A DNA stretch of 64,000 nt, from positions 231,263-295,262 of the forward strand of contig NZ_JBKBKQ010000001.1 of assembly GCF_046294525.1 (NCBI RefSeq). The letters run 5' to 3'. Position 1 is the first letter of the stretch; each line of letters opens with the position of its first letter. The notes under the pieces were generated by a model. It did not search any database, was not told the origin of the DNA, and was given only the letters and a program-made list of their open reading frames with translations. The translations under genes and the position numbers were made by a program. This document shows, in pieces, positions 18,914 through 43,371 of this stretch. This stretch comes from Acidovorax sp. (GTDB taxonomy: Bacteria; Pseudomonadota; Gammaproteobacteria; Burkholderiales; Burkholderiaceae_C).

Positions 18914-18988
18914 CTCCTCGTAGTTCAATGGATAGAACGAGTGCCTCCTAAGCGCTAGATACAGGTTCGATTCCTGTCGAGGGGACCA
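18914..18988 (+). tRNA. tRNA-Arg (anticodon CCT)
   Basis: 75-nt cloverleaf folded by hand: acceptor CTCCTCG/CGAGGGG, D-arm GTTC-AATGGATA-GAAC, anticodon arm AGTGC-CTCCTAA-GCGCT, T-arm ACAGG-TTCGATT-CCTGT, discriminator A, encoded CCA. Confidence 0.8.
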
Positions 18989-18997
18989 GATTTATGG

Positions 18998-19057
18998 TCA
19001 AAATGGCCTCTAGCGCTTATTGGATAAGCGCTAGCAGCTATCAAAACAGTAGTATCC
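18998..19057 (+). repeat. copy B of ~55-60 bp palindromic repeat family (CTAGCGCTTAT-TGG-ATAAGCGCTAG perfect palindrome)
   Basis: Lies immediately 3' of tRNA-Arg and upstream of hsdM; aligns with the copies at 8787, 26281, 44668 and 50490. Confidence 0.6.
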
Positions 19058-19149
19058 AAAGAAGAAGCAACCCCGTGGCAGGGTCTTCGCAGTGTGTGCG
19101 GCGGGCCTGCCCGCTTGACGGCCCCTTGCAGGCCACACACCGCAGCCAC

Positions 19150-20775
19150 ATGCTCCAAGACATCCAGAAAACCCTGTGGGCCACCGCCGACAAGCTGCGT
19201 GCCAACATGGACGCCGCCGAATACAAGCACCTGGTGCTCGGCCTCATCTTCGTCAAATACATCTCTGACACCTTTGCCGCCCACCACGCCACGCTGGTGC
19301 TGCGCCTGGCAGACCCCAACGACGAATACTTCTACGGTGACGCCGACCCCGCCGACATAGCCGCCGAGCTGGAAGACCGTGACTACTACAAGGAAGCCAA
19401 CGTCTTCTGGGTGCCCGAAGCCGCCCGGTGGGAGCAACTGCGCAGCAGCGCCAAGCAGCCCGACATTGGCAAACGCATTGACGACGCGCTGACGCTGATC
19501 GAGGCCGAGAACCCCACGCTCAAAGGCATCCTGGACAAACGCTACGCCCGTGCACAGCTGCCCGACGGCAAACTGGGCGAGCTGGTCGATTTGGTGTCAA
19601 CCATCGGCTTTGGCGACACCCCCGACGTGGCCCGCGACACCCTGGGCCAGGTGTACGAATACTTTCTGGGCATGTTCGCCAGCGCCGAAGGCAAACGCGG
19701 CGGGCAGTTCTACACGCCCGCCAGCATCGTCAAAACCCTGGTGGCCGTGCTCAACCCGCACACCGGCAAGGTGTACGACCCGTGCTGCGGCAGCGGCGGC
19801 ATGTTTGTGCAGAGTGAGAAGTTCATTGAGGCACACGGCGGCAAGAAGGGCGACGTCTCCATCTACGGGCAAGAGAGCAACCCCACCACCTGGCGCCTGG
19901 CCGCCATGAACCTGGCCATTCGCGGCATCGACTTCAACCTGGGCCGCGAACCCGCCGACACCTTTGTGCGCAACCAGCACCCCGACTTGCGCGCCGACTT
20001 CATCCTGGCCAACCCGCCCTTCAACATCAGCGACTGGTGGCACCCCAGTTTGGAGGGCGACGCCCGCTGGGTGTATGGCGACCCACCCCACGGTAACGCC
20101 AACACCGCCTGGCTGCAGCACATGCTGCACCACCTCAAAGCCACGGGCCGTGCGGGCATCGTGCTGGCCAACGGCAGCATGAGCAGCAGCCAGAACAACG
20201 AAGGCCAGATCCGCGCCGCCATGGTCGATGCCGACGTGGTGGAAGTGATGATCGCCCTGCCCGGCCAGCTGTTTTTCAACACGCAAATCCCGGCGTGCCT
20301 GTGGTTTTTGGCCAAAAGCAAGAAGCGCAAGGGCGAGGTGCTGTTCATCGACGCCCGCAAGCTCGCCACCCCTATCAGCCGCGTGCAGGGCGAGCTGACC
20401 GACGAAGTCATCGACCGCATCGCCGCCACTGTAGCCGCCTGGCGCGGCGAGCCCGCACCCACCGTCATCACGCCCTCGTCCTCGTCCACCCCAAACCCCG
20501 TTCGGGCTGAGCCCGTCGAAGCCCACCCCCACCCCACCCCCTACCAGGACATACCCGGCTTCTGCCGCAGCGTGCCCCTGGCCGAGATCGCCCAACACGG
20601 CCACGTACTCACCCCCGGCCGCTACGTGGGCGCCGAGGCGGTGGAGGACGACGACGAAGCCTTTGCCGACAAGATGGTGAAGCTGACGGAAAAGCTGGGT
20701 GAGCAGATGGCCAAGGGCGCGGAGCTGGATGCGGTGATTCGGCAGAAGTTGGGGGGGTTGGGGTATGAGTTCTGA
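19150..20775 (+). CDS. hsdM: Type I restriction-modification N6-adenine DNA methyltransferase subunit HsdM
   Basis: HsdM N-terminal domain ([32 protein letters not shown]), SAM-binding motif (DPCCGSGGM) and catalytic NPPF (LANPPFN). Confidence 0.9.
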
Positions 20776-22015
20776 GTGGCCTCAAGTCTCACTTCGAGAG
20801 TTTGCAGATCTACTCGCTGGGTTCGCATTTAAAAGCAGCGGCTACACAGACGACTCCTCGGATGTTCGACTCCTTCGAGGAGACAACATCGCACCCGGCC
20901 AAGTCCGGTGGGATGGTGTAAAGCGGTGGCCCAAAGCTCCGGCTCTCACACTGTCGAGATATCGCTTGGAACCCGGCGATGTCGTGCTCGCTATGGATCG
21001 ACCGTGGATACCCGCTGGTTTGAAGGTTGCGCAGGTTACCGAAACCGACACGCCTAGCTACTTGGTACAGCGCGTTGCTCGCCTTCGTACAACTTCACGA
21101 GAGGATCGCAGCTTTCTATTTGCGCTCTTATCAACGACAGATTTTGAGTCGTACATCCAGAACGCGACTACTGGAACAGCCGTTCCTCACATCAGCGCCA
21201 AGCAAATACTCGACTACAAATTTAATCTTCCACCAGCGACTGTACGAACTGGAATCGGCGCTCTCGCAGCTGCACTTAACGACCGCATCACCCTCCTGCG
21301 CGAAACCAACGCCACGCTCGAAGCCATTGCCCAGGCGCTGTTCAAGTCGTGGTTTGTCGATTTCGACCCCGTGCGCGCCAAGATGGAAGGCCGTGCCCCC
21401 GAAGGCATGGACGAAGCCACCGCCGCGCTGTTTCCCGATGCGCTGGAGGAGTCGGAGTTGGGGGAGGTGCCGAGGGGGTGGCTACCCGTTCGACTGAACT
21501 CGTTTTTGGAGCTTGCTTACGGGAAGGCACTCAAAGCAGAAAACCGCAACCCCGGTCCAGTGCCTGTGTATGGGTCTGGCGGAATTACGGGGTGGCACGA
21601 CACGCCGCTGATTGATAGCCCGTCGATCATCGTCGGCCGTAAGGGCACAGTTGGAAGCCTCTACTGGGAGAGCCGCCCGTTCTACCCAATCGATACGGTC
21701 TTTTACGTGAAGTCCAAGTGTCCGTTGACGTATTGCCACCAGCTTTTGAAGACTGTGGGTTTGCATGACATGAATACCGATGCAGCGGTCCCTGGGTTGA
21801 ACAGAGAAAACGTCTATCGCTTGCTGGTTCCAGATGCCCCTGCAAACGTTCTCGCAGCGTTCGATGCGTCGGCCAACGCATTGAGAAACAGCATCGACCA
21901 AAACGAAGCCCAAGCCCAAACCCTCTCCACCCTCCGCGACACCCTGCTCCCCCACCTGATCTCGGGCCAGTTGCGCTTGCCCGAGTCGCAGGCCGCTATG
22001 AAGGACGCGTTATGA
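20765..22015 (+). CDS. hsdS: Type I R-M specificity subunit HsdS
   Basis: 416 aa with two target-recognition domains separated by conserved repeats; both TRD regions are visibly lower in GC; overlaps the hsdM stop. Confidence 0.85.
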
Positions 22016-22713
22016 CCGAACGCATCCACATCTATTGCGACGAGTCGTGCCATCTGGAAAACGACCACATGCGTGCGATGGTGCTGGGCGCCGTGTGGTG
22101 CTCGGCGTCGCATCGGCAGTCGCTGGCAGACAAGATCAAACGCTTGAAAGCAGACTACGGTTTGCCAGCTCAGTTTGAAATCAAGTGGGTGAAGGTGTCA
22201 CCCGGAAAATTGCCGTTCTACCAAGCGTTGCTGGACTTGTTTTTCGACGAACCCTTGCTGCATTTCCGAGGATTGGTGGTGCCAGATAAGGGGGCCTTGG
22301 ATCATGGCCGTTTTTCCCAAAGCCATGACGATTTCTATTACAAGCAGTGGTACACGCTACTCAATCGACTGATCGACCCGAGCAACCGATACCGCATTTT
22401 TCTGGACATCAAGGACACACGCGGCCAAGCCAAGGTGCGCAAGCTGCACGATGTGCTGTGCAACGCCAACTATGACTTCGACCGCAATGTGATCGAGTCG
22501 ATCGAACTGGTGCATTCGCACGATGTGCTGCTACTCCAACTGGCAGACCTGCTGATTGGTGCGCTGGCGTATGTGCACCGGGGTTTGCACGGCAGCCCGG
22601 CCAAGCTGGCGCTGGTGGCGCATCTACGGCACCGCTCGGGCTTGCGGCTGGAACAAAGCTCACTGCTGCGGGCAGACAAGTTCAATCTGTTCATCTGGAG
22701 GCCGCAGTCTTGA
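22012..22713 (+). CDS. DUF3800-like protein embedded in Type I R-M locus
   Basis: 233-aa ORF beginning [15 protein letters not shown]... (the IYxDES motif is typical of DUF3800); GC is lower than its surroundings; ATGA start/stop overlap with hsdS. Confidence 0.55.
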   Translation: MTERIHIYCDESCHLENDHMRAMVLGAVWCSASHRQSLADKIKRLKADYGLPAQFEIKWVKVSPGKLPFYQALLDLFFDEPLLHFRGLVVPDKGALDHGRFSQSHDDFYYKQWYTLLNRLIDPSNRYRIFLDIKDTRGQAKVRKLHDVLCNANYDFDRNVIESIELVHSHDVLLLQLADLLIGALAYVHRGLHGSPAKLALVAHLRHRSGLRLEQSSLLRADKFNLFIWRPQS

Positions 22714-22715
22714 GC

Positions 22716-23216
22716 ATGCCGCCACCTTTGATGCCATTCAGTGGGGATGACGACTGGGCCGACTATGAAGATGCCATTTACGAGGTGTACTTGCAGACGG
22801 TTGCACATGCTCAGCTCACGTTCATGGGTGCCCCGGTCAAAGTGCGCTTTATGCCGACCACCAAACACAAAGGCTACGGGTTTTGGCACTTGATCTCTGA
22901 AGCACCCGACCAGGACAACCGGAATGAAGATGACCGCGTACCTGACCTGCGCCGATGCGAGCGGGTGCGCTGGGTGGCATGGTGCATTCAGAATGCAGGC
23001 AAGACGGGGTTTTCGTGGTGGGAAAACGACCGCAAAGGTCAAACCCATGTGGTCATATGGGCCGAGGAGCACGACTATGCGGTGATGCTGGGCAAGCGAA
23101 ACACGCCAGAAGGAGTTCGCTTTTATTTGCTCAAGACCGCCTACTGCCTGCGGTCACACAACGTACGCCGCTTTGCCAAGGAACGCGATGCGTATTGGGC
23201 AAGCCAGAAAGACTGA
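22716..23216 (+). CDS. hypothetical protein (166 aa) co-transcribed with DUF3800-like gene
   Basis: Its ATG lies 3 nt after the DUF3800 stop; moderately low GC; no recognisable motif. Confidence 0.4.
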   Translation: MPPPLMPFSGDDDWADYEDAIYEVYLQTVAHAQLTFMGAPVKVRFMPTTKHKGYGFWHLISEAPDQDNRNEDDRVPDLRRCERVRWVAWCIQNAGKTGFSWWENDRKGQTHVVIWAEEHDYAVMLGKRNTPEGVRFYLLKTAYCLRSHNVRRFAKERDAYWASQKD

Positions 23217-23391
23217 AGCCCCGGCACACGGATGTGCAAGGGCTTCGGATACTCCTTCTACACGTGGTAGATGAGCTGGGCTGATTGTAGCGGTGCAAGC
23301 AAATCAAGGCATTCCGAATGTTGTATTACCCACAAAAAGCGAAAAGCATACTGGCGGCGCGGGGCCGCTGCTGGGGAGTTGCCTGTGGGGC

Positions 23392-23453
23392 TCCGAACAT
23401 TCGCAGCTGAGGTCCGAACATTTACAGCTCAGCTCCGAACATTCGCAGATACC
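23392..23453. repeat. 3 tandem ~21-bp direct repeats (TCCGAACATTCGCAGCTGAGG-like)
   Basis: Read directly in the AT-richer intergenic region upstream of fic. Confidence 0.6.
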
Positions 23454-23620
23454 AAAAGCCGCGCGATGCCGAGAATCTCCGGCCACTTGCGCTTGTCCGA
23501 GGCGCAGGCGCTAATCAACGCGGTTTGAAACTGAACAGCTATGAAAGTGGTCTTTCACAGCGGCCCGACCTTTAAAGAGTTCTTTCACAGCTTGCCGGAC
23601 GACAAGCTGGGCGTCGCTGA

Positions 23621-23764: not shown

Positions 23765-24841
23765 ATGCCTTTTGACCGCAGCCAACCCCACAACGACCTG
23801 CCCCTGCTGCCGCCCGCAGTAGAGCTGGAGAGCAAGGCTGTGCTCAAGCAGGCGATTGCGGCCAACCGGGTGCTGGCCAACCTGCGCGGGCTGGCGGCGC
23901 AGATTCCGAACCAGGGCGTGCTGATCAACAGCATCGTGCTGCAGGAAGCGCGCTTGTCGTCGGAAATTGAAAACATCGTCACCACCAACGACGAGCTGTA
24001 TCGCGCCGACGCGGACGCTGACGGCAAGGCCGATGCCCATACCAAGGAGGTGTTGCGCTACCGCGAGGCGCTCTACCACGGCTTTGCCGCGCTGAAAGAC
24101 CGCCCTTTGAGCACCAATCTGTTCATAGAGATAGCCCAGCGCATCAAGCAGATGGATTTGCAGGTGCGCGCCGTGCCCGGCACGGCTTTGAAGAATGAGC
24201 GGGGCGAGGTGGTGTACACGCCGCCTGTGGGCGATGCGGTGATTCGCGACAAGCTGTCCAACCTTGAAAAGTTCATCCACGCCGATGACGACCTCGACCC
24301 GCTGGTAAAGATGGCGGTCATGCACTACCAGTTCGAGGCGATTCACCCGTTCCCGGATGGCAACGGCCGCACGGGGCGCATCCTGAACCTGCTGTTTCTG
24401 GTGGAAAAGGGCTTGCTGGACATTCCGGTGATGTTCCTGTCGCGCTACATCATTGCCCACCGTGCGGCCTACTACGAGGGTTTGCGCCGGGTGACGGAAG
24501 AGCAGGACTGGGAGAACTGGCTGCTTTACATGCTGCGTGCGGTGGAAAGCACGGCTCAGCAGACGTTTGATCAGGTCAACCGCATCCGTGACTTGATGGA
24601 GCAGGTGCGCGAGCGTGTGCAGCGCGAAGCGCCTGGCGTGTACAGCAAAGACCTGATCGAGGTGATCTTCAAGCAGCCCTATACAAAAATCCAGTTCGTG
24701 GTGGACGCTGGCATTGCCAAACGGCAAACCGCGTCCGGTTACCTGCAAACCCTGGCGGGCCTGGGCGTGCTGCGCGAAAGCAAGCACGGGCGCGAGAAGT
24801 ACTACATCAACGACGCCTTGTTGGCAGAGCTGGTGGGTTGA
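23765..24841 (+). CDS. fic: Fic/Doc-family protein (AMPylation-type Fic)
   Basis: Canonical Fic motif HPFPDGNGRTGR, sitting between hsdS and hsdR, which is a well-known association. Confidence 0.85.
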   Translation: MPFDRSQPHNDLPLLPPAVELESKAVLKQAIAANRVLANLRGLAAQIPNQGVLINSIVLQEARLSSEIENIVTTNDELYRADADADGKADAHTKEVLRYREALYHGFAALKDRPLSTNLFIEIAQRIKQMDLQVRAVPGTALKNERGEVVYTPPVGDAVIRDKLSNLEKFIHADDDLDPLVKMAVMHYQFEAIHPFPDGNGRTGRILNLLFLVEKGLLDIPVMFLSRYIIAHRAAYYEGLRRVTEEQDWENWLLYMLRAVESTAQQTFDQVNRIRDLMEQVRERVQREAPGVYSKDLIEVIFKQPYTKIQFVVDAGIAKRQTASGYLQTLAGLGVLRESKHGREKYYINDALLAELVG

Positions 24842-24921: not shown

Positions 24922-27900
24922 ATGGCATCGACACATCCGCCACCTCTCAGCCCCGGACCTGACCGCATGACCGAAGACCAGCTCGAACGCGAAACCCTGG
25001 CCTGGCTGCAGGACGTGGGCTACACCCACATCGCCGGTCCCGACATCGCCCCCGACGGCCCCGCGCCCGAGCGCAGCGACTACCGCCAGGTGCTGCTGGC
25101 AGGCCGCCTGAAGGCAGCGCTGATGCGGCTGAACCCTGCCGTGCCCGTGGTGGCCATCGACGACGCGCTGGCGCAGGTGCAAGACCTGGGCGTGCCCGCG
25201 CTGCTGGCGGCCAACCGACGGTTTCACCGGCTGCTGGTGGCGGGCGTGCCGGTGCAGTACCAGCGCGGCAACGAGACAGTGGGCGACTTCGTGCGCCTGG
25301 TGGACTGGGCTGCGCCCGAGCGCAATGAGTGGCTGGCGGTGAACCAGTTCAGCGTGCGCGGGCCGCGCCACACGCGCCGGCCCGACGTGGTGCTGTTTGT
25401 GAACGGCCTGCCGCTGGTGCTGCTGGAGTTAAAAAACCCCGCCGACCAGGCCGCCAGTGTGTGGAAGGCGTACGACCAGATCCAGACGTACAAAGAGCAG
25501 ATCCCGGACCTGTTTAACACCAACGAGGTGCTGGTGATTTCAGACGGCACCGAGGCACTGCTGGGGTCGCTGAGCGCAAGCGCCGAGCGCTTCATGGCGT
25601 GGCGCACGATTGACGGCGTGGCGCTGGACCCGCTGGGCCAGTTCAACGAGCTGCAGACACTGGTGCGCGGCGTGCTGGCGCCGCAATACCTGCTGGACTA
25701 CCTGCGCTACTTTGTGCTGTTTGAGGACGATGGGCAGCTGGTCAAAAAGATCGCGGGCTACCACCAGTTTCATGCGGTACGCGCCGCCATTGCGCAGGTG
25801 GTGGCTGCTGCCACGCCGGGCAGCGGCGCAGACCCGGCCATCAAGGGCAAGGGCGGCGTGGTGTGGCACACGCAGGGCAGCGGCAAGAGCATCACCATGA
25901 CCTGCTTTGCCGCCCGCGTGATGCAGGAGCCCGCGCTGCAGAACCCCACCATCGTGGTCATCACCGACCGCAACGACCTGGACGGCCAGCTGCTGGGCGT
26001 GTTTGGCCTGGCGCAAGACCTGCTGCGCGAGCAGCCCGTGCAGGCCCGCACCCGGCAAGAGCTGCGCACGCTGCTGGCCAACCGCCCCTCGGGCGGCATT
26101 GTGTTTGCCACCATCCAGAAGTTCATGCCCAGCGAGGACGAAGACAGCTACCCCATGCTGTCGGACCGCCACAACATCGTGGTGATTGCCGACGAGGCGC
26201 ACCGCACGCAGTACGGGTTTGAGGCGCGACTGAAGGTGCGCAAGGCTGATGTGAAGGCCGATGGGAAGGAAGATTTCAAGCCAAATCAGGCTATAGCGCT
26301 TGATACACAAGCGTCACCAGCTACAAATAATGTAGCAAACCCCATCGCCACAGGCAGCGGCACCGCCCCCGCACACCGCGCCGAATTTGCGCCGCCCACC
26401 TACCGGGCAGGCACCGAAGCGAACACAGTGGAACACGCCCGCGAGCATTACCAGGTGGGCTACGCCCAGCACCTGCGCGATGCTCTGCCCAACGCCACCT
26501 TTGTGGCGTTTACCGGCACCCCGGTGAGCGGCACCGACCGCGACACGCGCGCCGTGTTTGGCGACTACATCCACGTGTATGACATGCAGCAGGCCAAGGA
26601 AGACGGCGCCACCGTGGCCATCTACTACGAAAGCCGCATGGTGAAGCTGGGCCTGAAGGCCGACGAGCTGCCCAGCATTGACGCCGAGGTGGACGAGCTG
26701 GCCGAGGACGAAGAAGAAAGCGTGCAGTCGCGCCTGAAAAGCCGCTGGGCGGCGCTGGAGCAGGTGGTGGGCGCCGAGCCCCGCGTGGCGCGCGTGGCGC
26801 AGGACCTGGTGGCGCATTTTGAAGAGCGCAACACCGCCCAGCTCGGCAAGGCCATGGTGGTGGCCATGAGCCGCGACATCTGCGCGCACCTGTACAACGA
26901 GATCGTGCGCCTGCGCCCCGACTGGCACAACGCCGACCCCGAGCTGGGCGCCATCAAGATCGTGATGACCGGCAGCGCCAGCGACAAAGCGCTGCTGCGC
27001 CCGCACATCTACAGCGCGCAGGTGAAAAAGCGGCTGGAAAAGCGCTTCAAAGACCCGGCCGACCCGCTGCGCATCGTGATCGTGCGCGACATGTGGCTGA
27101 CCGGCTTTGACGCGCCCTGCGTACACACCCTGTATGTAGACAAGCCCATGAAGGGCCATAACCTGATGCAGGCCATTGCCCGCGTGAACCGCGTGTTCAA
27201 GGACAAGCAGGGTGGCCTGGTGGTGGACTACATCGGCATTGGCAACGAGCTGAAAGCCGCCATGAAGGAATACACCGCCGCCCAAGGCCGGGGCCGCCCC
27301 ACGGTGGACGCGCACGAGGCCTTCAGCGTGGTGCTGGAAAAGCTGGATGTGCTGCGCGCCCTGCTGCACGGGTTTGACTACAGCGGCTTTCTGACGGGCG
27401 GCCACCGCGTGCTGGCGGGTGCTGCCAACCACGTGCTGGGCCTGCCGCGCCAGGCCGGGCAAGACGGCAAAAAACGGTTTGCCGACACTGCCCTGGCGAT
27501 GAGCCAGGCCTTTACCCTGAGCTGCACACTGGACGAGGCGAAGGGCGTGCGCGAGGAAGTGGCCTTCATGCAAGGCGTCAAGGTCATCCTGACCAAGCGC
27601 GACATCACCGCCAAGCAACGCACCGACGAGCAGCGCGAGCTGGCAGTGCGCCAGATCATCAGCCATGCAGTGGTGTCTGAAAGTGTGGTGGACATCTTTG
27701 ACGCCGTGGGGTTGGAGAAGCCCAACATCGGCCTGCTGGACGAAGGCTTTCTGGCCCAGGTGCGGGCGCTGCCCGAACGCAACCTGGCGGTGGAGTTGCT
27801 GGAGCGACTGCTGGAGGGCGAGATCAAGAGCCGCTTTGCCAGCAACGTGGTGCAAAGCAAAAAGTTCTCGGAGCTGCTGGGCGGCGTGATCGTGCGCTAC

Positions 27901-28296
27901 CAGAACCGCAGCATTGAAACCGCCCAGGTGATGGAAGAACTGCTGGACATGGCCCGCCAATTCCGCGAGGCACATGGTCTGGCCGACAAGCTGGGGCTGA
28001 GCGAAGACGAGGTGCGCTTTTACACCGCGCTGGCCGAGAACGAATCTGCCGTACGCACGCTGAGCGACGACACGCTGAAAAAAATCGCCCACGAACTGAC
28101 CGACAACCTGCGCAAAAACCTGACGGTGGACTGGACCGAGCGCGAGAGCGTGCAAGCCAAGCTGCGCCTGATGGTCAAACGCATCTTGCGCAAGTACAAA
28201 TACCCGCCGGACCTGGAAGCTGCAGCGGTGGAGCTTGTGCTGCAACAAGCGCAGGCATTGGGTGAAGAGTGGAGCGAGCTGGCTGCAGCGGTCTGA
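24922..28296 (+). CDS. hsdR: Type I R-M endonuclease/helicase subunit HsdR
   Basis: SF2 helicase motifs (GSGKS, DEAHRTQ, FTGTP); the start may be the second Met at 24967; it contains an unusually long low-GC insertion between DEAH and the FTGTP motif. Confidence 0.9.
26281..26340 (+). repeat. degenerate in-frame copy C of the ~55-60 bp palindromic repeat inside hsdR
   Basis: CAAATCAGGCTATAGCGCTTGATACACAAGCGTCACCAGCTACAAATAATGTAGC aligns with copy B; there is a local GC dip. Confidence 0.45.
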
Positions 28297-28378
28297 ACAA
28301 ACCGACACAAAAAACACCCTCTGTCGTTTGCCACACACCACGCTTGCAATTGGTGACAAACGAACACATTGACATGAT

Positions 28379-29723: not shown

Positions 29724-30097
29724 GCCCCGCACCGCGCAAGCCCGCGCGGTGGCAGGGCTCCGAGCCCGCTCTGCGCGCCGTCCAGGTGGCGTTTGACGTG
29801 GAAGAAGCCGTGATGGAGGCCATCCGCGTGGCGGCTTTCCATGCCAACGTGTCCACCTCCACGCAGATCCGCAGCGTACTGGACTTGCCCGTGGCGGCCC
29901 GGCCCAAGCGGCCGCGCCTGACGGTGACGCTGGACGCAGCCGACTACGAGTTGCTGGCGCAGCGCTACGGCCTCACACCGGAAGACCGCCTGGGCATCAA
30001 GGAGGCGGCCACGCGCGAGCTGATTGCTTTTGTGCAGCAGCCACCGCGCGCGGCCCGGGCGGGCACCGGCGGCGGCAAGAAGAAAAACAGTCGATAA
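29720..30097 (+). CDS. hypothetical protein with two ribbon-helix-helix-like repeats
   Basis: 125 aa; a beta-alpha-alpha pattern is repeated twice (LRAVQVAFDVEEAVMEAIRV..., RLTVTLDAADYELLAQRYGL...); ATGA overlap with the PspA-like gene. Confidence 0.35.
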   Translation: MSPAPRKPARWQGSEPALRAVQVAFDVEEAVMEAIRVAAFHANVSTSTQIRSVLDLPVAARPKRPRLTVTLDAADYELLAQRYGLTPEDRLGIKEAATRELIAFVQQPPRAARAGTGGGKKKNSR

Positions 30098-33175: not shown

Positions 33176-33751
33176 ATGACCCCACGCTTGCATTGCAGCT
33201 GCACCCTGCGCTCCGTGCTTAAAAACGTGGCGCTGGACGAAGGCCTTCCCGCACTGGCCTGTCCCGACTGCGGCGCCGTGCTGCTGAAGATGGACGACTG
33301 GCGCCGCTGGCGCAGCCGCTCGCCTGCGGCAGTGGCGCTCGGTGTTTCCGTAGCCGCTGATGCCGTCTCTGCCGACCCAGGCCGTGCGCGCGCCTGCCCG
33401 GCCTGCACACGGCTCATGGAACGCCTGCCCTTGGACGCCGCCGGTGCCCTGCGCCTGGACCGTTGCAGCACTTGCCAGACGGTGTGGCTGGACCCGGGCG
33501 AATGGCAGGCCCTGGTGGAGCGTGGCCTGGCGTCACAGCTGGACGCTCAGATGTCGGACGGCGGTCAACGCCGCCTGCAGGCCGAACGTCTGCATGCAAG
33601 CCGCATTCAGGCTTTGCGCCAACGCCACGGCGACGCTTGCATGGACGAAGTGCTGCGCATCCGCCGCTGGCTGGCCGAACAGCCGCGCCGTGACGAAGTG
33701 CTGGCGCTGTTGCAGGCGCCCGAAGCGGCAGCGCCCTCACAAAGAAACTGA
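33176..33751 (+). CDS. zinc-ribbon domain protein (hypothetical)
   Basis: 191 aa with two Cys clusters (CPDCG...CPAC...CSTC); GC-rich coding. Confidence 0.45.
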   Translation: MTPRLHCSCTLRSVLKNVALDEGLPALACPDCGAVLLKMDDWRRWRSRSPAAVALGVSVAADAVSADPGRARACPACTRLMERLPLDAAGALRLDRCSTCQTVWLDPGEWQALVERGLASQLDAQMSDGGQRRLQAERLHASRIQALRQRHGDACMDEVLRIRRWLAEQPRRDEVLALLQAPEAAAPSQRN

Positions 33752-33817: not shown

Positions 33818-35227
33818 ATGACCTACAAATCCACCTGGCAATTGCCCGGCCATAACCCGCCAATGCTTGTCCAGCTTTCCATCGTTCCCTATGGCGCCAA
33901 CGGCACAGCTTCTTTCCGAATCTCAAGCTGCGTACTTAAAAAGGACCCGAGTCCCACCATTTTTCCCGGCGGCGAGGTGCTTCAGCTGACGCAGCCGGAC
34001 GGCGACCGAATCGTTGTGCAGAAGTATCTGGACTGGATTGCAGCCAACCCTGGGGTAATTCCGCGGTTCGACAACAACAACGGTCTTTTCCCTGAGTACT
34101 TCTTGGAGCCACAAGGTCGGCGCAAGACAGCCACTGAACTCCTGCTCGACGAAGCCATGTTGCGAGTGGAGCTGGGAGACTACGAGATTGCCCAGACCCT
34201 TCTCAACTCCATCGTTGAGCCTTCAGACTGCATGTTTCACCACACCGTGCTGCGCCGTCTTTATGCCAACTGGGCCACCGACGCTGCTGGCGCACCGGCA
34301 CAAGTGCATGCACAACGGGCAGTGCACCATGCAGAAGTCATCGTTGACATCTATCGCAAGATGGAGTCGGTGCATGAATACCCTGACAGATATGTTTGCT
34401 ACTACTTCGGTGACTACAGCACCGCCGGCTCTCAAGTCTCCAGCGCATGCGCGACCTTGGTGAGACATCGGTTACAGCAGCGGCAATTCCAAGCTGCGCT
34501 GGAAATCGCCGCATACGGAATCGCCGCAAATCGCTGGGACAGCGACTTGCGTGAACTGCAGATTCGCGCCCTGATGGCTATGGGCCGCAATGAGGAGGTT
34601 TGGCCGATATACGCCCTAAATCATCGCGGTATCGGCCCCATGCCGGAGGTAACCGAAACGGAAGGCTATCGCGCCTACATACGCGCGCAGTCTGAAGAAG
34701 CGCAGACCCAAGAGAAAAAGCGCCGCGCCAGCGTCGTCTTGCGCTATCACGATAGCCCTCTCCTCACCGACACAGAGCAGGCTGCATGGAAGGCACGGTA
34801 TCTGAATCTGCCGCAGAACTTTCTGTCCTGGGTCTCCAGCGGCCAGCGTACGCATCTGAAGGGCAGCGTGGAAACGGACGAGTACGAATACCGTCTGTTC
34901 AACCTGCAACAAAGCCAAGAATGGCACACCGACTTCATGGGGTGGCTCAATCTGCACGCAAAAAGCAGCCCAGACTTTCATGCGGAGATTTGGCAACACA
35001 TCCACGCAAGCGGCATTGATCCCGAACGCATGACTCCCATCCTAGGTGATACACACACGCCAGATGGCTTTCTGGTGCGATGCGACGGCGGGCCCGGAGA
35101 GTATGGCGCCGTCTACTTCTGGAGCCATGAGGAACTGCCAGTGTTCGAAAAAATCGCTGACAGCGCCCAAGACCTAATGCCGTGGCTTGCGACCGCAATA
35201 AGAGAAGGCAAGCCATTCATTTTGTAA
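33818..35227 (+). CDS. hypothetical protein with C-terminal SUKH-1 (SMI1/KNR4) immunity-like domain
   Basis: 469 aa; the C-terminal ~130 aa carry the SUKH-1 hallmarks LPQNFLSWV ... DGGPGEYGAVYFWSHEELPVFEKIADSAQDLMPWL; the gene is markedly lower in GC than its flanks. Confidence 0.5.
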   Translation: MTYKSTWQLPGHNPPMLVQLSIVPYGANGTASFRISSCVLKKDPSPTIFPGGEVLQLTQPDGDRIVVQKYLDWIAANPGVIPRFDNNNGLFPEYFLEPQGRRKTATELLLDEAMLRVELGDYEIAQTLLNSIVEPSDCMFHHTVLRRLYANWATDAAGAPAQVHAQRAVHHAEVIVDIYRKMESVHEYPDRYVCYYFGDYSTAGSQVSSACATLVRHRLQQRQFQAALEIAAYGIAANRWDSDLRELQIRALMAMGRNEEVWPIYALNHRGIGPMPEVTETEGYRAYIRAQSEEAQTQEKKRRASVVLRYHDSPLLTDTEQAAWKARYLNLPQNFLSWVSSGQRTHLKGSVETDEYEYRLFNLQQSQEWHTDFMGWLNLHAKSSPDFHAEIWQHIHASGIDPERMTPILGDTHTPDGFLVRCDGGPGEYGAVYFWSHEELPVFEKIADSAQDLMPWLATAIREGKPFIL

Positions 35228-35313: not shown

Positions 35314-38300
35314 ATGACCTCCATGTCCGAAACGCACGATGACGCCATCGACACCAGCGTGGCCGAAAGCAGCAGCTATGAGTTGCTGAAGAAACGCCTG
35401 GAAGCCCAGGGCGACACGCTGTTGTCCAAAGCACAGGCGCTCAACGCGGCGCGCATTGGCCAGTTCGGCCAGCGCGACCAGCAACTGCTGATGCGTTTGC
35501 GTGCGCGCACCGAGCACAGCTGCGTGGCGCGTGACCTGGCCTACATCGGCGGCAACCGGCTGCTGTTTGGCTACAACGTGTTCATGGGCCTCAAGCGCGA
35601 AACGCGGGTGGAGGACGTTTTCGCGCTGTACGAGTTGGCGCACCACGATGCGACCCGTGAAGAAGCGGGCGCTCCCGACAGCGACGAGCTGGTGCAGGTG
35701 CCGATGGCGGGCGGCTTTCTGGACGACCCACGTTTTGTGGCCGACTTCAACGAGCTCTACACCTACTACAAGCAGGCCACGCTGCAGTTGCTGCGCCCCA
35801 CGCCCGAATTTTTGTTGGCCGCGTTTCAGATCGGCCAGCAGGCGCAGGACATTCGAGTGTTTCGCTGGCGGCGTGAAAGCGATGGCTCGCTGAAGTACGT
35901 GGACAACCGCGGCGAGCGCGACCTGGCGCCGCCGCCCAGCCACGATTTCAGCTGGACGCCGCTGACACGCGAACACCATGTGGGCGGCGCGCACCCGCAC
36001 ATCAATGTGCTGGACACCATCTTTGTGGAAACCACCGGTGGCACGCTGACGGTGAAGGTGGAGAACAACACCGAGTCTGGCCTGGGCATCTACGATGAGC
36101 CCGTGGAAGACGCCAACCAGGCGCTGGGCGATGCCGAGTTTGCCTACGCCAAGCTGGGCCTGTTGATCCTGCTGCAGGTGCGCCCCTACCGCGAGAGCAC
36201 CACGCGCTACCTGGTGTTCAACCAGCGCACGCGGCAGGTGGTGCGCATCGACGCCATTGGCGCATCGTGCATGCAGCTGCCGGAGGACCACGGCATCATC
36301 TTCCCCGGCGGGTACTACCTGCAGTCGGGCGAGACCAAGCGCTTTGACCTGCCGCCCGAGCTGACCGAGCAGCTGCGCTATACGCGCATGAAGCGCTCGC
36401 CGAACGGGGAAGACGTGGCCTACATCTTCTACGGCACGGTGCCCCCGCCGCAGGGCAGCCCGGCCACGCTGGATGCGGGCTGCTATGCCATCTTCACCTA
36501 CAACCTCATCGACAAGTCGCTCGCGCCGCCCGTCCTGGCCGATGGGTACAGCACCTTCCCGGACGGGCGCATGCTGGTGTTCCAGGCCGCGCGCGGCGAG
36601 GCCGCGCGCGTACACCCTATGCAGCTGTGGCGCACACCCTTTGCCACCGAGGAACACGCCAGCCGCCAGCCCGCCGGCACGGGCTTCTTTGGCCGCGTGG
36701 GCAATGCCGACCTGGTGCGCGGCATCTCGGACCTGCTGGGCATTGCCCGCATGGTGCGCGAGCAGGTGCCCACGCGCACTGCGTACGAAGACCTGATACG
36801 CCAGTGCCAGCGCGCACGCGACGCCTACTTCTGGCTGGACGCCGGCGAGGTGCAGAACGCTGCGGCTGACCTGTCGGCCATCGAGCAGGCCGCGCAGGCC
36901 ACGCTGGGCGAGTTTGAAAAGGTTGAGAGCATCCGCCAGGACACGGCCCGCGCATTGCACAAGGCCGAAGGCCAGCAGCGCGAGCTGATGACCGCCATTG
37001 CCAGCCAGATGTGGCGCAGCCCCAGCGACTTTGTGCAGGCGCTCAACCGCCTGCGCCAGCGCCAGGGCGAGCTGCACCTGCTGCGCGAGCTGCGCTATGC
37101 CGACCTGGCCGCCGTGGATGCCATGGCCGCGCAGCTCACGGCCGAGCAGCAGCGCGTGGGCGAACGCGCGCTGCAGTTCCTGTCCGACGAAAAAGCCTTT
37201 GACGGCCAGCGCCAGGCCCTGACCAAGGTGGCCACCACCCTGCCCCAGGCCGCCACCGCCGCGCAACTGGCCGAGCAGTTGGACACGCTGGACGCCGAAG
37301 CCGCCAGCCTGGACCTGCTAAGCGAACAACTGGGCAACCTGCCCGGCGGCGATGCCGTGCAGCGCACCACCATCCTCGACCGCATTGCGCTGCTGTACGC
37401 TGACATCAACCGCCTGCGCGCCGATGCCCGCGCGCGCCGCCGCAACCTGGGTGCGGCCGAGCAGCGGGCGGAGTTTGGCGCGCAGTTCAAGCTGTTCGGC
37501 CAGGCCGTGGAAAACGCGCTGGAGCTGTCGGACACGCCCGAAAAGTGCGACGAGGCGCTGACCCGCCTGCTGGCGCAGCTGGAAGACATCGAAGGCCGCT
37601 TTGCCGAGCAGGAAGAGTTTCTGGCCGACATCGCCACCCAGCGCGAAAGCGTGTACGAGGCCCTGTCGGCCCGTCGCCAAAGCCTGGTGGATGCACAGCA
37701 GCGCCGCGCCAAGGCCCTGGCCGATGCGGCCGGGCGCGTGCTGGACGGCGTGCCGCGCCGCATTGCCGGCTTTGGCGAGCTGGCCCAGGTGCACAGCTAC
37801 TTCGCGTCCGACCCCATGCTGACCAAGCTGCGCGAGCAGGTGGCCGAGCTGCGCCGCCTGGGCGCGGCCGTGGCGGCCGACGACATCGACACGCGCCTGA
37901 AGACCGCCCGCGACCAGGCCGTGCGCGCGGTGCGCGACCAGCGGGAGCTCTCGGCCGGCGCCGAGGGCGGCCTGAAGCTGGGCAGCCACACCTTCACCAT
38001 CAACAAGCAGCCGCTAGACCTGACCCTCGTCGCCCACGGCAATGGACTGGCCTGGCAGATCACCGGCACCGACTACCTGGCCCCGGCGCACGACGCGCGG
38101 CTGCAGGTGCTGCGCCCCTTCTGGCAGCAGGCCCTGGTGTCGGAGACGCCGCAGTTGGCACGCGCCGAATACCTGGCCGCCGAATGGCTGGAAGCCCAGC
38201 AGCGCGGCGAGGCCGAGCCCGGCTGGAGCGAGCTGCTGGTGCAGCTGGCCGAGCATGCGCGCACGGATGGCATCGATGGCACCGAGCCCACCACCCCGCC

Positions 38301-40944
38301 CGCCGTGCTGCTCGATTCACTACGCCGCTTTGCCGCCAGCCGCTATCAAGAGGGCTACCAGCGCGGCATCCACGACGACGACGCCCTGGCCATCGTGCGC
38401 GTGCTCGCGCCCATCCAGGATGCGGCCGGGCTGCTGGTCTATGGCCCATCCGAGCGCGCGCTGGCCAAGCTCTACTGGCACCTGGGCCTGCGCGAGGAGA
38501 GCCGCAACTCCCTGGCCCGCCGCGCTCGCAGCGCCCAGCACATCGCGCAGCTGTTTTCACAGACCACGCTGCGGGACACGCTGGAGGCCGAGGCTGCGCA
38601 GGGTCTGCGCCAGTTTGTGGAGCAGCACCCCGTGCTGGCCGATGAGTGGCTGCCGGAGCTGGCCCAAGCACTGGGAACCGACAGCGCGGAAGGCGGGAGC
38701 GACGAGGCTTTGCTGCGCACGCTTGTGGAAGAAGCCAGCGCCTACCTGGTGCGCGAGCTGGCCCACACCGACATCGGAACGGCCGAGCTGGCCTCCGTCA
38801 CGCCGCAATGGGTGATCAGCAACACGGGCGCGGACCTGGTGCAGGCCCTGCAGCGCGCGCTGGACCATGGGGGCCTGGCCAGCGCCTGGCAGCGCGACCT
38901 GGCGGCCGCCGAGCCGCTGGAGCGCTGGCGCCTCGCGCGCGGCTGGCTGCGCGCGTTTGCCGCATCGCAGGCGGATGCCGACGGTGCCACGCCAGCCCTC
39001 GCCTGGATTGACGATGCCGCCACGGCGCTCACCTTCCAGGGTACGCGCCGCCGCATCAACGCCACGCTGGACGCGCAGGTGGCCGGGCTGCGCAGCGAGC
39101 ACATGCGCATCCAGCACGGCGCGCTGGCGTTCAACCTCAACGACTTTCGCCGGCGCGTGCGCCATCACCGCAGCCACGCGGTGCGCGGCTTTTTGCAGTT
39201 GCAGGCCCTGCGGCACGAGCTGCTGGTGCAAGAAAAAGCGCGCCTGCACCTGGCCCAGTTCCAGGCCAAACCGCTGGCCACCTTTGTGCGCAACCGGCTC
39301 ATCGACGAGGTGTACCTGCCGCTGGTGGGCAACAACCTGGCCAAGCAACTGGGCGCCGCAGGCGAGAGCGCACGCACCGACCGCATGGGCATGCTGCTGC
39401 TGATCTCGCCGCCCGGCTATGGCAAGACCACGCTGATGGAATATGTAGCCAACCGCTTGGGCCTGGTGTTTGTGCGCATCAACTGCCCGGCCCTGGGCCA
39501 TGGCGTGACCAGCATCGACCCCAGCACCGCGCCCAACAGCGCGGCGCGGCAAGAGCTGGAAAAGCTCAACCTGGGCCTGGCTATGGGCAGCAACGTGATG
39601 CTGTACCTGGACGATATCCAGCACACGCACCCCGAGTTTTTGCAGAAGTTCATCGCTCTGGCCGACGGCACCCGCCGCATTGAAGGCGTGTGGCAGGGCC
39701 AGCCCCGCACCTGGGACATGCGCGGCAAGCGCTTTGCCATCGTGATGGCGGGCAACCCGTACACCGAATCGGGCGACGTGTTCCGCATCCCCGACATGCT
39801 GGCCAACCGCGCCGACATCTACAACCTGGGCGACGTGCTCTCGGGCCGCGAGGCCGTGTTTGCGCTGTCGTACATCGAAAACAGCCTGACCGCCCACCCC
39901 GTGACCCAGCCCCTGGCCGCGCGCGAACCGCAGGACGTGCACGTGCTGGTGCGCATGGCCCAGGGCGAGGCCATCGACACCAGCAGCTTTGCCCACCCCT
40001 ACAGCGCGGTGGAGCTGCAGGAACTCAAGGGCCTGCTGCAGCGCCTGTTCAAAGTGCGCGACGTGCTGCTGAAGGTGAACCTGGCCTACATCGCCTCGGC
40101 CGCGCAGGACGACCGCTACCGCGAGGCGCCGCCCTTCCGCCTGCAAGGCAGCTACCGCAACATGGCGCGCCTGGCGCCGCAGGTCACGCCGCTGATGCAG
40201 GACGACGAGCTCGATGCGCTGCTGCGCGACCACTACCGCGGCGAGGCGCAGACTCTGACCACTGGCGCCGAAGAAAACTTGCTGCAGCTGGCGCAGCTGA
40301 TCGGCCGCCCCACGCCCCAGGAGCAAGAGCGCTGGGACCAGATCCGGGGCGACTACCAGCGCCAGCGCAAGATGGGCGGCGCCGAGGACGACCCGAGCGT
40401 GCGCGTGACGCGTGGGCTGCTGGACATTGCCCGCAGCGTGGAAGCCCTGCAGCCCCGCCAGGCCACCGAGCAGCTCACGCAGCAGATCGCAAAGCCGTTG
40501 GCCGCTATTGCGCAGCAGCTGGCCCAGCCCTCGCCCGCGCAGCAGGCCCAGGCCGCGGCGTTGGACCGCATCGAACCCGCGCTGAACGCCCTGGCGGAGC
40601 TGGCCCAGCACCTGCAAAAGGGCACCACCCAGACCCAGGCGCAGATGCGCGCCAGCCTGGACGCCACGGCAGAGGCGCTGCTAGCCCTGCAGGCCAGCAC
40701 CCAGGTCCTGCACGCCCACAGCGACCAGGCCCAGAGCCAGCGCATGGTGGACGCACTGCTGTCGCTGTCGGTCACCTACCGCCAGCTCATCATGCCGCTG
40801 GTGCGGGCGGTGGAAAGCCGCGTGGGGGCCGACGCCAAGATGCACCAGGAGGTGGAACGACTGGAGGGCATGATCGACAACCTGCGCGAGGCTCCGCCAT
40901 CAAGGGAAGCGCCGCCACCAAAGAAGAAGCCCCATCAGACTTAG
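35314..40944 (+). CDS. giant (1876 aa) uncharacterised protein with C-terminal-proximal MoxR/midasin-like AAA+ ATPase module
   Basis: Walker A LLISPPGYGKTT, Walker B VMLYLDDIQH and sensor-1 IVMAGNPYTESGD at about residues 1370-1480; roughly 700 aa of coiled-coil-like Ala/Leu/Gln/Arg-rich sequence precede it, and an N-terminal ~500-aa globular region; the frame stays open across 5.6 kb of high-GC DNA. Confidence 0.8.
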   Translation: MTSMSETHDDAIDTSVAESSSYELLKKRLEAQGDTLLSKAQALNAARIGQFGQRDQQLLMRLRARTEHSCVARDLAYIGGNRLLFGYNVFMGLKRETRVEDVFALYELAHHDATREEAGAPDSDELVQVPMAGGFLDDPRFVADFNELYTYYKQATLQLLRPTPEFLLAAFQIGQQAQDIRVFRWRRESDGSLKYVDNRGERDLAPPPSHDFSWTPLTREHHVGGAHPHINVLDTIFVETTGGTLTVKVENNTESGLGIYDEPVEDANQALGDAEFAYAKLGLLILLQVRPYRESTTRYLVFNQRTRQVVRIDAIGASCMQLPEDHGIIFPGGYYLQSGETKRFDLPPELTEQLRYTRMKRSPNGEDVAYIFYGTVPPPQGSPATLDAGCYAIFTYNLIDKSLAPPVLADGYSTFPDGRMLVFQAARGEAARVHPMQLWRTPFATEEHASRQPAGTGFFGRVGNADLVRGISDLLGIARMVREQVPTRTAYEDLIRQCQRARDAYFWLDAGEVQNAAADLSAIEQAAQATLGEFEKVESIRQDTARALHKAEGQQRELMTAIASQMWRSPSDFVQALNRLRQRQGELHLLRELRYADLAAVDAMAAQLTAEQQRVGERALQFLSDEKAFDGQRQALTKVATTLPQAATAAQLAEQLDTLDAEAASLDLLSEQLGNLPGGDAVQRTTILDRIALLYADINRLRADARARRRNLGAAEQRAEFGAQFKLFGQAVENALELSDTPEKCDEALTRLLAQLEDIEGRFAEQEEFLADIATQRESVYEALSARRQSLVDAQQRRAKALADAAGRVLDGVPRRIAGFGELAQVHSYFASDPMLTKLREQVAELRRLGAAVAADDIDTRLKTARDQAVRAVRDQRELSAGAEGGLKLGSHTFTINKQPLDLTLVAHGNGLAWQITGTDYLAPAHDARLQVLRPFWQQALVSETPQLARAEYLAAEWLEAQQRGEAEPGWSELLVQLAEHARTDGIDGTEPTTPPAVLLDSLRRFAASRYQEGYQRGIHDDDALAIVRVLAPIQDAAGLLVYGPSERALAKLYWHLGLREESRNSLARRARSAQHIAQLFSQTTLRDTLEAEAAQGLRQFVEQHPVLADEWLPELAQALGTDSAEGGSDEALLRTLVEEASAYLVRELAHTDIGTAELASVTPQWVISNTGADLVQALQRALDHGGLASAWQRDLAAAEPLERWRLARGWLRAFAASQADADGATPALAWIDDAATALTFQGTRRRINATLDAQVAGLRSEHMRIQHGALAFNLNDFRRRVRHHRSHAVRGFLQLQALRHELLVQEKARLHLAQFQAKPLATFVRNRLIDEVYLPLVGNNLAKQLGAAGESARTDRMGMLLLISPPGYGKTTLMEYVANRLGLVFVRINCPALGHGVTSIDPSTAPNSAARQELEKLNLGLAMGSNVMLYLDDIQHTHPEFLQKFIALADGTRRIEGVWQGQPRTWDMRGKRFAIVMAGNPYTESGDVFRIPDMLANRADIYNLGDVLSGREAVFALSYIENSLTAHPVTQPLAAREPQDVHVLVRMAQGEAIDTSSFAHPYSAVELQELKGLLQRLFKVRDVLLKVNLAYIASAAQDDRYREAPPFRLQGSYRNMARLAPQVTPLMQDDELDALLRDHYRGEAQTLTTGAEENLLQLAQLIGRPTPQEQERWDQIRGDYQRQRKMGGAEDDPSVRVTRGLLDIARSVEALQPRQATEQLTQQIAKPLAAIAQQLAQPSPAQQAQAAALDRIEPALNALAELAQHLQKGTTQTQAQMRASLDATAEALLALQASTQVLHAHSDQAQSQRMVDALLSLSVTYRQLIMPLVRAVESRVGADAKMHQEVERLEGMIDNLREAPPSREAPPPKKKPHQT

Positions 40945-40969
40945 GCGATGTCGTCGCGCACGGTTCTAC

Positions 40970-41185
40970 TTACTTCAGCCAGCTGCGCTTGGGCCGGGGC
41001 TGCACCGTGATATCCACCGCCTGGCGCACAGTGGGCTGGCCGCTGGCGGGGTCGGTGTCTACCACATCTTCCAGATCAATGTCCTTTACATCGGAGTCGG
41101 TGGACTCTTCCAGCTCTTCCAGAACGGCGTTGACCTTGCGTTCGGCCTGCTGGACTGCGGCCTCGGAAACAGGGGGGTTGCCCAT
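40970..41185 (-). CDS. small acidic hypothetical protein (71 aa)
   Basis: GC3-rich codon usage; convergent with the giant gene and 26 bp from its stop. Confidence 0.3.
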   Translation of the reverse strand: MGNPPVSEAAVQQAERKVNAVLEELEESTDSDVKDIDLEDVVDTDPASGQPTVRQAVDITVQPRPKRSWLK

Positions 41186-41301
41186 GGCGGTGGCTCCTCA
41201 GGTTGGCGGATATCCCCCATTCTTGCCGCAGTACAGCCTGTGCGCTGTCAGCCGATGCCGGCGGACAGGGGTAGGCGGCGGGCTCGCTCAGGCTCCCGCG
41301 T

Positions 41302-43369: not shown

Positions 43370-43371
43370 AG

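Follow-up and report, generated by a model that had tools for sequence, protein, structure and literature searches.

When a tRNA gene is followed by a restriction-modification (R-M) system and by genes of low GC content, does this mean that an island has integrated at the tRNA? The question is raised by a 64,000-nucleotide stretch of an Acidovorax sp. genome (RefSeq assembly GCF_046294525.1, contig NZ_JBKBKQ010000001.1, positions 231,263 to 295,262; hereinafter the window, with positions counted from its first letter), in which a tRNA-Arg(CCT) gene precedes about 22 kb of DNA that opens with a type I R-M operon. A preliminary description of the sequence had seen here the classic footprint of an integrated island. 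Our comparison with related genomes points elsewhere: the interval is most probably a hot spot that holds two unrelated modules in tandem, and not one tRNA-integrated island. Module A (~19.06 to 28.34 kb) is an intact hsdM-hsdS-hsdR operon with extra genes between hsdS and hsdR, while module B (28.34 to 40.97 kb) is an operon coding for a PspA homolog, a flotillin-like protein, and a giant ATPase.

The comparison set consists of 80 tamB loci with 10-kb flanks, one genome per species, collected with the C-terminal 399 amino acids of the window TamB as the query (matches 96 to 80% identical, in Acidovorax and Paracidovorax genomes). Locus maps were made by tblastn and blastn against the window, and genes in the region were called by GC-frame analysis and Pfam. 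Labels such as L001 denote the loci compared; L011 is A. benzenivorans, L033 is A. temperans DSM 7270, L009 is A. kalamii, and L085 is Acidovorax sp. YS12 (CP053915.1, hereinafter YS12).

The interval after tRNA-Arg(CCT) and its attachment site

The tRNA gene starts 55 nt past the end of tamB (tamA, 12494-14428; tamB, 14428-18858), and this linkage is conserved across the Comamonadaceae. In the 50 loci scanned, the tRNA lies downstream of tamB on the plus strand in 48 and on the minus strand in one (L029), and none was found in the short locus L013. What follows the tRNA is much more variable. In L002, a sister species (TamB C terminus, 93%), the order is tamB-tRNA-REP-orf71-EamA, REP being a repetitive extragenic palindrome-like element, and the ~22 kb are absent; homology with the window ends at 19020 and restarts at 40971. 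Hardly anything lies at the site in loci L004, L016, L023, L026, and L030 either, where 180 to 540 nt separate the tRNA from the EamA transporter gene, and other cargo of 1.6 to 9 kb is found in L007, L011, L012, L014, L019, L021, L027, L031, and L033. The cargo elsewhere includes a KilA-N/BstA-like gene, a methyltransferase, RCC1-repeat proteins, and unknowns, and L001, the closest species representative, has a mobile-element polyvalent protein 3' of the tRNA. From these maps, the interval between the tRNA with its REP and orf71/EamA is a hot spot at which Acidovorax chromosomes hold accessory DNA, and the 22 kb found there in the window are dispensable.

The right edge had been placed in the preliminary description either near orf71 and the EamA gene or at a REPtron further on. 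The first position was nearly exact, and the edge falls at 40970/40971, before orf71 and the EamA gene; all the genes from hsdM through the giant ATPase are on the plus strand, with orf71 and EamA on the minus strand. The REPtron (42792-43552) contains a Y1_Tnp/RAYT-like open reading frame (ORF; 42851-43369, Pfam E 1.4e-6) and REP inverted repeats of 33 to 34 nt that are 97 to 100% complementary (42792-42824, 43401-43434, 43469-43501, and 43519-43552). L002, L004, and L081 lack it at the corresponding place, between the AsnC-type regulator and ApbA genes, and it is therefore a separate lineage-specific insertion.

The sequence directly 3' of the tRNA bears on whether the attachment site is occupied. 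In the window, the REP (core CTAGCGCTTATTGGATAAGCGCTAG) abuts the intact tRNA with nothing between them, the same arrangement as in the empty sites, and this copy is conserved between species and marks the native tRNA-downstream sequence. P4-type integrases (with Arm-DNA-bind_3, Phage_int_M, and Phage_integrase domains) lie directly 3' of the same tRNA in A. kalamii and A. temperans. The latter locus carries a 6.8-kb P4-like integrative element (11335-18173 of L033) that codes for an integrase and a Toprim-DUF3987 primase. Its borders are the tRNA and a 16-nt copy of the T-arm/acceptor segment in the 3' part of that tRNA (TTCGATTCCTGTCGAG), which make up an attL/attR pair. The 16-nt repeat (attR) is followed by the same REP-like palindrome that lies 3' of the tRNA in the empty sites. 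Because the REP directly follows the intact tRNA in the window, while the A. temperans element sits before that REP, the integrase attachment site of the window tRNA is vacant, with both modules distal to the native REP. The window thus resembles the P4-like tRNA-linked elements in the tRNA involved and in that the cargo of the interval differs in nearly every species, and it differs from them in having no integrase and no repeat and in the position of its cargo beyond the REP. Palindromes of this type (~50 nt, with the same core) are dispersed at gene ends, with weaker copies near 651-680, 8795-8849, 44678-44715, and 50506-50542.

The searches confirmed that the window has no integrase gene and no direct repeat of the tRNA 3' end, as had been described. 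None of the ORFs between 18.9 and 41.3 kb has an integrase domain in Pfam, PADLOC, and NCBIfam scans, and we found neither a repeat of the tRNA of at least 13 nt nor a fuzzy match to its last 17 to 45 nt in the window. A stricter search for a repeat of the tRNA 3' end over the 80 loci gave none, and an 11-mer search gave only the 16-mer of L033. In a general repeat search, there were no long direct repeats flanking the region, and the repeats inside it were at chance level; the strong inverted repeats are those of the REPtron (42.8 to 43.5 kb). Rfam returned the tRNA as its sole match.

The GC dips had been assigned to hsdS, a DUF3800 pair, and a SUKH gene. Their positions stand: hsdS has a GC content of 0.569 (0.63 at third codon positions, GC3), the cassette at 22.0 to 23.5 kb has 0.561, and orf469 has 0.564 (GC3, 0.65), compared with 0.67 to 0.68 in the flanks. 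The DUF3800 pair is the candidate system PDC-M04, of which only gene A has that domain. GC dips are not diagnostic of integration here. A core block at 8.5 to 12.4 kb has a GC content of 0.618, yet it is 96 to 99% conserved at the amino acid level, and since it contains the conserved MoxR/VWA pair, low GC is no sign of foreign DNA at this locus. We discarded the dinucleotide signature (delta*) as a means of discrimination, as core tamAB and the same core block deviate as much as the modules. The MoxR-like AAA gene (9445-10539) and the VWA gene (11177-12364) mostly show 93 to 99% protein identity to the closest Acidovorax loci, down to ~82 to 90% in more distant ones, while the neighboring TamB is only 53 to 79% identical, a sharp rate contrast between adjoining core genes (9445-18858).

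Histories of the two modules

The two modules are found one without the other. A. benzenivorans has the order tRNA-hsdM-hsdS-Fic-hsdR-EamA and no PspA module, while L006, L008, L081, and L082 have tRNA-DUF2170-PspA...giant ATPase and no R-M genes. The left junction falls at 19016-19096, and the junction between the modules falls at 28337-28343, where homology with the loci lacking R-M opens. Divergence also differs. The third-codon identity of hsdM and hsdR to L011, L003, and L012 is 0.87 to 0.90 (hsdM to L011 and L003, 0.89 to 0.90, with 93% nucleotide identity; hsdR to L011 and L012, 0.87 to 0.88, with 94%), compared with 0.63 to 0.84 for the flanking core, even for core genes with 98 to 99% amino acid identity. 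The R-M genes are therefore above every flanking core gene in this measure, which indicates that they have been recently exchanged between species. A sliding identity comparison jumps upward at the hsdM start, and the species bearing the R-M operon are spread over four clades of the tamAB tree. For module B, the third-codon identity to L006 and L008 is 0.65 to 0.81, inside the core range. The "empty" site of L026 still has 77 nt of the 3' end of the giant gene (window 40822-40898, 82%, E 2e-13), so module B was lost there by deletion. The simplest reading would be that module B is ancestral at this site, with repeated loss.

Put together, module A would be a phage defense islet whose R-M operon was recently exchanged between Acidovorax species, and the target recognition domains (TRDs) of hsdS and the small cassette after this gene would be swapped by recombination at conserved hsdS segments. 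Module B would have been present at the site before these species split and would have been deleted repeatedly in sister lineages; it would be an operon of the envelope stress type that later gained one rare gene, orf469, coding for tetratricopeptide repeats (TPR) and a putative SUKH domain.

Module A would have arrived without the tRNA attachment site, presumably by homologous or illegitimate recombination after plasmid or DNA transfer. Several points weigh against this account. The comparisons are all between species representatives, so gain and loss are timed in relative terms only; third-codon identity approximates synonymous divergence (dS) crudely and shifts with codon bias; and gain and loss were placed on a single-locus tamAB tree drawn from DNA adjoining the hot spot. 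YS12 has module B elsewhere, the tract from 30.2 to 35.2 kb has a third-codon identity of 0.84 to 0.89 to L081 while its flanks have 0.63 to 0.80, and the module is a dinucleotide outlier, beyond the range of flank chunks of the same size. These three observations together indicate that module B is not purely vertical and has undergone some horizontal movement or gene conversion. Two of its membrane proteins have no Pfam or PDB match of their own, the 214-amino-acid protein with four transmembrane (TM) segments and the 708-amino-acid flotillin-like protein, and their NfeD-like and flotillin-like labels come from the names of homologs and from architecture.

Could the whole block still be a single old island of ~22 kb, integrated at the 3' end of tRNA-Arg by a tyrosine integrase, with the integrase and attR since decayed? 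It adjoins a tRNA that does serve integrases in other members of the genus as their attachment site, the GC dips are present, and the entire block is absent from L002. Against this, its halves occur separately in other species and with different divergence, the native REP is directly 3' of the intact tRNA, unlike in the A. temperans element, and there is neither a repeat of the tRNA nor an integrase remnant among the ORFs. We consider a single integration highly doubtful, and the footprint seen in the preliminary description dissolves into independent modules of different histories beside a vacant attachment site. The opposite possibility, that the whole family shares one gene order 3' of tRNA-Arg and that the dips merely reflect gene content, can draw on the genome-typical GC3 of hsdM, hsdR, and the module B genes (0.80 to 0.89) and on the low GC of true core genes at 8.5 to 12.4 kb. 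We give it hardly any credence, as the site is empty in six or more species and different cargo lies 3' of the same tRNA in many others; a family-wide conserved order was not seen, and the empty site in L002 and others bears out the accessory and composite character first given to the region.

The ancestry of module B is a separate matter, as it might instead have been gained repeatedly, by insertion or by homologous recombination through the tamB/tRNA and EamA flanks, and be mobile like the R-M operon, only older. On the tamAB tree it is scattered (the window with L081, L008, and L006 fall in three clades), it lies elsewhere in the chromosomes of YS12 and of other genera, and both the dinucleotide signature and the L081-like tract would fit such movement. 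Most module B genes have, however, a core-like third-codon identity, the relic in L026 speaks for loss by deletion, no mobility genes were found beside the module in the ~80 contexts examined, and core tamAB deviates just as strongly in its dinucleotide signature. Repeated gain seems unlikely to us, and we retain an ancestral module B with repeated loss. Both modules are of kinds already described, as is each of their components, and current concepts are left unchanged. The locus serves as a worked example that a tRNA, an R-M system, and GC dips can occur together without any island integrated at the tRNA, the accessory DNA being here a stack of independently evolving layers.

The R-M operon and its embedded genes

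The features of the interval are listed in Table 1. The succession of tRNA-Arg(CCT) and a type I R-M system, already noted in the preliminary description, was confirmed with ARAGORN and Rfam for the tRNA and with Pfam for the operon: HsdM, HsdS with two TRDs, and an intact HsdR are all recognizable by sequence. The longest ORF of hsdM opens at 18994, inside the REP, but the true start is probably the methionine codon at 19150; that of hsdR is probably near 24967, as homology with A. benzenivorans opens at 24966. The two hsdS TRDs (~20805-21278 and ~21483-21901) are unique to the window and account for the GC dip of this gene, while similarity to L011, L088, and L091 (91 to 99%) is confined to the conserved N-terminal, central, and 3' segments. 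Operons related at 81 to 82% nucleotide identity are found on plasmids of Comamonadaceae (Acidovorax carolinensis and Polaromonas).

TABLE 1 Features of the window from tRNA-Arg(CCT) to the EamA gene
Feature	Position	Strand	Evidence and remarks
tRNA-Arg(CCT)	18914-18988	+	ARAGORN; Rfam tRNA, 61.5 bits; left anchor of the hot spot
REP-like palindromic element	18989-19057	.	Core CTAGCGCTTATTGGATAAGCGCTAG; common to empty loci and loci without R-M
hsdM	19150-20775	+	N6_Mtase E 2e-102; HsdM_N E 3e-21
hsdS	20765-22015	+	Pfam Methylase_S, two stretches
35-bp imperfect direct repeat, copy 1	21959-21993	+	Conserved hsdS 3' segment; left edge of PDC-M04 cassette
PDC-M04A	22012-22713	+	PADLOC E 2.6e-91; Pfam DUF3800 E 3.6e-15; phrog_3732 E 2e-39
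PDC-M04B (168 aa)	22710-23216	+	PADLOC E 1.7e-51; phrog_16230 E 8e-29; no Pfam match
hsdS 3'-end relic	23475-23528	+	Repeat copy 2 (23475-23509) and hsdS-like stop at 23528
SoFic-type Fic AMPylase	23765-24841	+	PADLOC E 2.7e-123; Pfam Fic_N, Fic, SoFic-like_C
hsdR	24922-28296	+	HSDR_N, SWI2_SNF2/ResIII, T1R_D3-like, T1RH-like_C; one uninterrupted ORF with all five domains
Sigma-70-like promoter, module B	28369-28397	+	TTGACA-17-TATTCT; 10/12 matches in sigma-70-type scan
DUF2170/YjfI/BacA-like	28379-28882	+	Pfam DUF2170 E 2e-26; PDB 8q8o (P. aeruginosa BacA crystal structure) E 1.5e-5
PspA/IM30 (YjfJ type)	28962-29723	+	Pfam PspA_IM30 E 5e-33
125-aa protein	29720-30097	+	Same position in L006, L008, L081, L085, L095-L097
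Four-TM protein (214 aa)	30198-30842	+	Hydropathy; soluble C-terminal domain
Flotillin/YqiK-like protein (708 aa)	30938-33064	+	N-terminal TM segment and long Glu/Ala-rich coiled coil
Zinc-ribbon protein	33176-33751	+	Pfam Zn_ribbon_TFIIB E 1.5e-6; precedes giant ATPase gene in many loci
orf469	33818-35227	+	N-terminal beta domain, TPR repeats, putative C-terminal SUKH domain
Giant ATPase (1,876 aa)	35314-40944	+	DUF3686 (36-506, E 4.5e-176), DUF7902 (627-711), coiled coil, AAA+ (~1361-1487)
orf71	40970-41185	-	Small conserved ORF; right flank, not accessory; present in L002 empty site, L021, L081
EamA transporter gene	41302-42324	-	Pfam EamA; right anchor; first conserved gene after tRNA in empty sites

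Traces of R-M turnover are seen in other loci. L008 retains ~40 nt of the R-M leader (to 19096) together with an LprI-like gene, a kind that is embedded in the Polaromonas plasmid operon, which suggests an earlier turnover at the same spot. L012 has a degraded R-M region (11330-16734), in which ~280 nt of the hsdM 5' end, inside a match of 437 nt beginning at the tRNA, are followed by an AlbA_2/HATPase_c_4 (Schlafen-like) gene and by an hsdR that is 93% identical and split into several ORFs; this broken operon could be due either to decay or to an assembly error in the long-read metagenome-assembled genome.

The first of the embedded systems is PDC-M04, which belongs to a candidate class of phage defense. 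Its two genes are adjacent and co-oriented, with an overlap of 4 nt, and both PADLOC models were matched. A PDB sequence search with either protein gave nothing significant, no phage DNA match to the cassette was found, and a literature search found no paper mentioning PDC-M04. The cassette (21994-23474) lies between two copies of a 35-bp repeat of the hsdS 3' end that are identical at 31 of 35 positions. In L088 and L091, which are uninserted, the single hsdS end is 236 nt before the SoFic gene, the same spacing as after the hsdS-like stop of the second copy in the window. An 85-amino-acid ORF at 23271-23528 is therefore probably not a gene, as alignment with the 3' ends of hsdS in the window and A. 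benzenivorans shows that it ends in the hsdS relic.

Exact-protein look-ups with the SoFic protein (100% identical) revealed several states of the slot after hsdS. It is empty in L088 and L091, holds a 301-amino-acid DUF3800 gene in L089, L090, L092, and L093, and holds PDC-M04 in L087 and the window, which are 100% identical over 3072 nt. The duplicated hsdS end suggests that small cassettes enter the operon by recombination at hsdS ends. The three states next to an identical SoFic provide a natural series for the embedding of defense genes in type I R-M operons, and the intact PDC-M04, SoFic, and R-M locus is a concrete object for experiment.

The SoFic protein has the Fic_N, Fic, and SoFic-like_C architecture of the known AMPylases, and its catalytic motif, HxFx(D/E)GNGRxxR, is intact (HPFPDGNGRTGR). 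Its score against the NCBIfam equivalog NF046030 is 510.4 bits, below the cutoff of 550, so it is to be taken as a close relative only. SoFic has been reported to act by AMPylation-driven abortive infection, and a small ORF for the AS1 antitoxin has been described downstream of Sofic in Escherichia coli (PMC12249575). The window gene differs in being embedded in an R-M operon and not stand-alone, with only 80 nt left before the hsdR ORF.

The classic example of a type I R-M system with an embedded gene is EcoprrI, with PrrC. PDC systems owe their definition to genes that lie inside BREX, DISARM, and type I R-M loci ("guilt-by-embedding"; Payne et al. 2024, bioRxiv 10.1101/2024.01.29.577857). 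The window operon resembles such loci in the co-oriented order hsdM-hsdS-[extra genes]-hsdR and in the matches to the PDC-M04 and SoFic models, and its plasmid relatives hold other embedded genes at the same position. It differs in having two systems in tandem and in the 35-bp duplication of the hsdS 3' end that borders PDC-M04, a feature not seen in the available part of Payne et al. 2024.

The PspA-flotillin-ATPase operon and orf469

Module B starts with its own sigma-70-like promoter, which is conserved in L006, L008, and L081, all without R-M, and marks the module as a separate unit. The true start of the DUF2170 gene is probably downstream of 28379. This gene is immediately upstream of the PspA_IM30 gene, and the operon ends with a large AAA+ protein with a putative N-terminal propeller and a coiled-coil region. 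The 125-amino-acid protein encoded after PspA has no match in Pfam, NCBIfam, PADLOC, or PHROG. The four-TM protein, whose gene is the conserved partner of the flotillin gene in ~70 loci, may be YqiJ/YuaF (NfeD)-like to judge from its position and architecture only (PMC11237479). Homologs of the 708-amino-acid protein go under the names flotillin family or YqiK, and PF01145 is found in one of them; the coiled-coil part of the window protein contains two copies of a 60-nt unit (32345-32503) with a spacing of 99 nt and 80% identity (MEAEA-GKEK-G-AEA motif). For the giant ATPase, a PDB sequence search gave only weak AAA+ matches (Rix7), and a literature search found no paper on DUF3686.

The module is very similar to an operon described by Ravi et al. 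2024 (PMC11237479), in which a dyad of CesT/Tir (YjfI) and PspA is accompanied by a band-7/flotillin protein, a YqiJ/YuaF-like protein, a novel AAA+ ATPase, and sometimes an HKD phospholipase. The window has DUF2170, PspA_IM30, multi-TM, TM plus coiled-coil, and giant AAA+ proteins in that order, and some of its relatives add the HKD phospholipase, as was also noted there; the zinc-ribbon gene and the inserted TPR-SUKH gene are additions of the window version. YjfI/DUF2170 proteins have a CesT/Tir-type chaperone fold (PMC11237479, PMC10948618). In Pseudomonas aeruginosa, bacABCDEF has been linked to biofilm, rhamnolipid, and virulence phenotypes (PMC10948618). BacA matches the DUF2170 protein of the window, the correspondence having been compared for BacA and BacB only; the bac operon is reported to be sigma-54 dependent (PMC10948618), in contrast to the sigma-70-like promoter found here in a scan for the sigma-70 type only. 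By analogy with these systems, module B is likely to serve ATP-dependent PspA/flotillin membrane maintenance.

The same gene order is found in Ottowia, Variovorax, and Hydrogenophaga, in unrelated chromosomal contexts and with a PLDc_2 protein in two of the genera, and in ~70 metagenomic loci. In YS12 (L085, 7698-19742; also L106 and L108), module B is at a site adjoining homologs of window 61.9 to 64 kb (TonB-dependent receptor).

The third low-GC gene, orf469, is found between the zinc-ribbon and ATPase genes. In ~26 of 32 loci with a recognized zinc-ribbon gene, the distance from its end to the ATPase start is only -7 to 59 nt, and in loci without a detected zinc-ribbon gene the flotillin gene usually ends ~50 to 300 nt before the ATPase start. 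The gene occurs in L081 and L099 and is lacking in L006 and L008, and it appears to be a low-GC insertion into a slot that is normally closed. Its description as a SUKH gene draws on its family: the match of orf469 itself to SMI1_KNR4 is subthreshold (E 0.013), while 15 of 18 family members match, with a best E of 5e-12. An AlphaFold2 model from an alignment of 18 sequences has a predicted local distance difference test (pLDDT) score of 89, with a TPR array between an N-terminal beta domain and a C-terminal alpha/beta domain, compared with a poor model from four sequences (pLDDT, 54). Foldseek comparison of the whole model with the PDB gave only TPR matches (MamA, LapB, and consensus TPR proteins), which bear on the TPR array only, and a PDB sequence search gave nothing significant. 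The family is very rare, with 3 clusters by indexed search and 21 clusters among 1.84 billion representatives, and one relative, 35% identical, is in an unrelated caspase/TPR-OmpA/Ank context. This very rare TPR-SUKH family is thereby flagged inside an uncharacterized PspA/flotillin/AAA+ operon.

The YS12 lineage has in the same slot PDC-S02, a DUF1016/YhcG nuclease of the PDDEXK type (E 1e-126), together with a 113-amino-acid gene; PDC-S02 is also embedded in a Polaromonas plasmid type I R-M operon. As this slot, the only open one inside the module in Acidovorax, has twice taken conflict-type genes, TPR-SUKH in the window and PDC-S02 in YS12, and module B is back-to-back with a defense islet in the hot spot, the module could be a conflict system in its own right, acting at the membrane, perhaps against phages. 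We regard this as improbable because the slot is closed almost everywhere else. That module B would be a frequent host of embedded genes was likewise rejected, the slot being closed in most surveyed loci. Relatives of the giant DUF3686 ATPase, 73% identical at the N terminus, are also found in metagenomic loci L111-L113 and L134, in which none of the module B partners of the window is detectable upstream, and these proteins may work with a different partner set.

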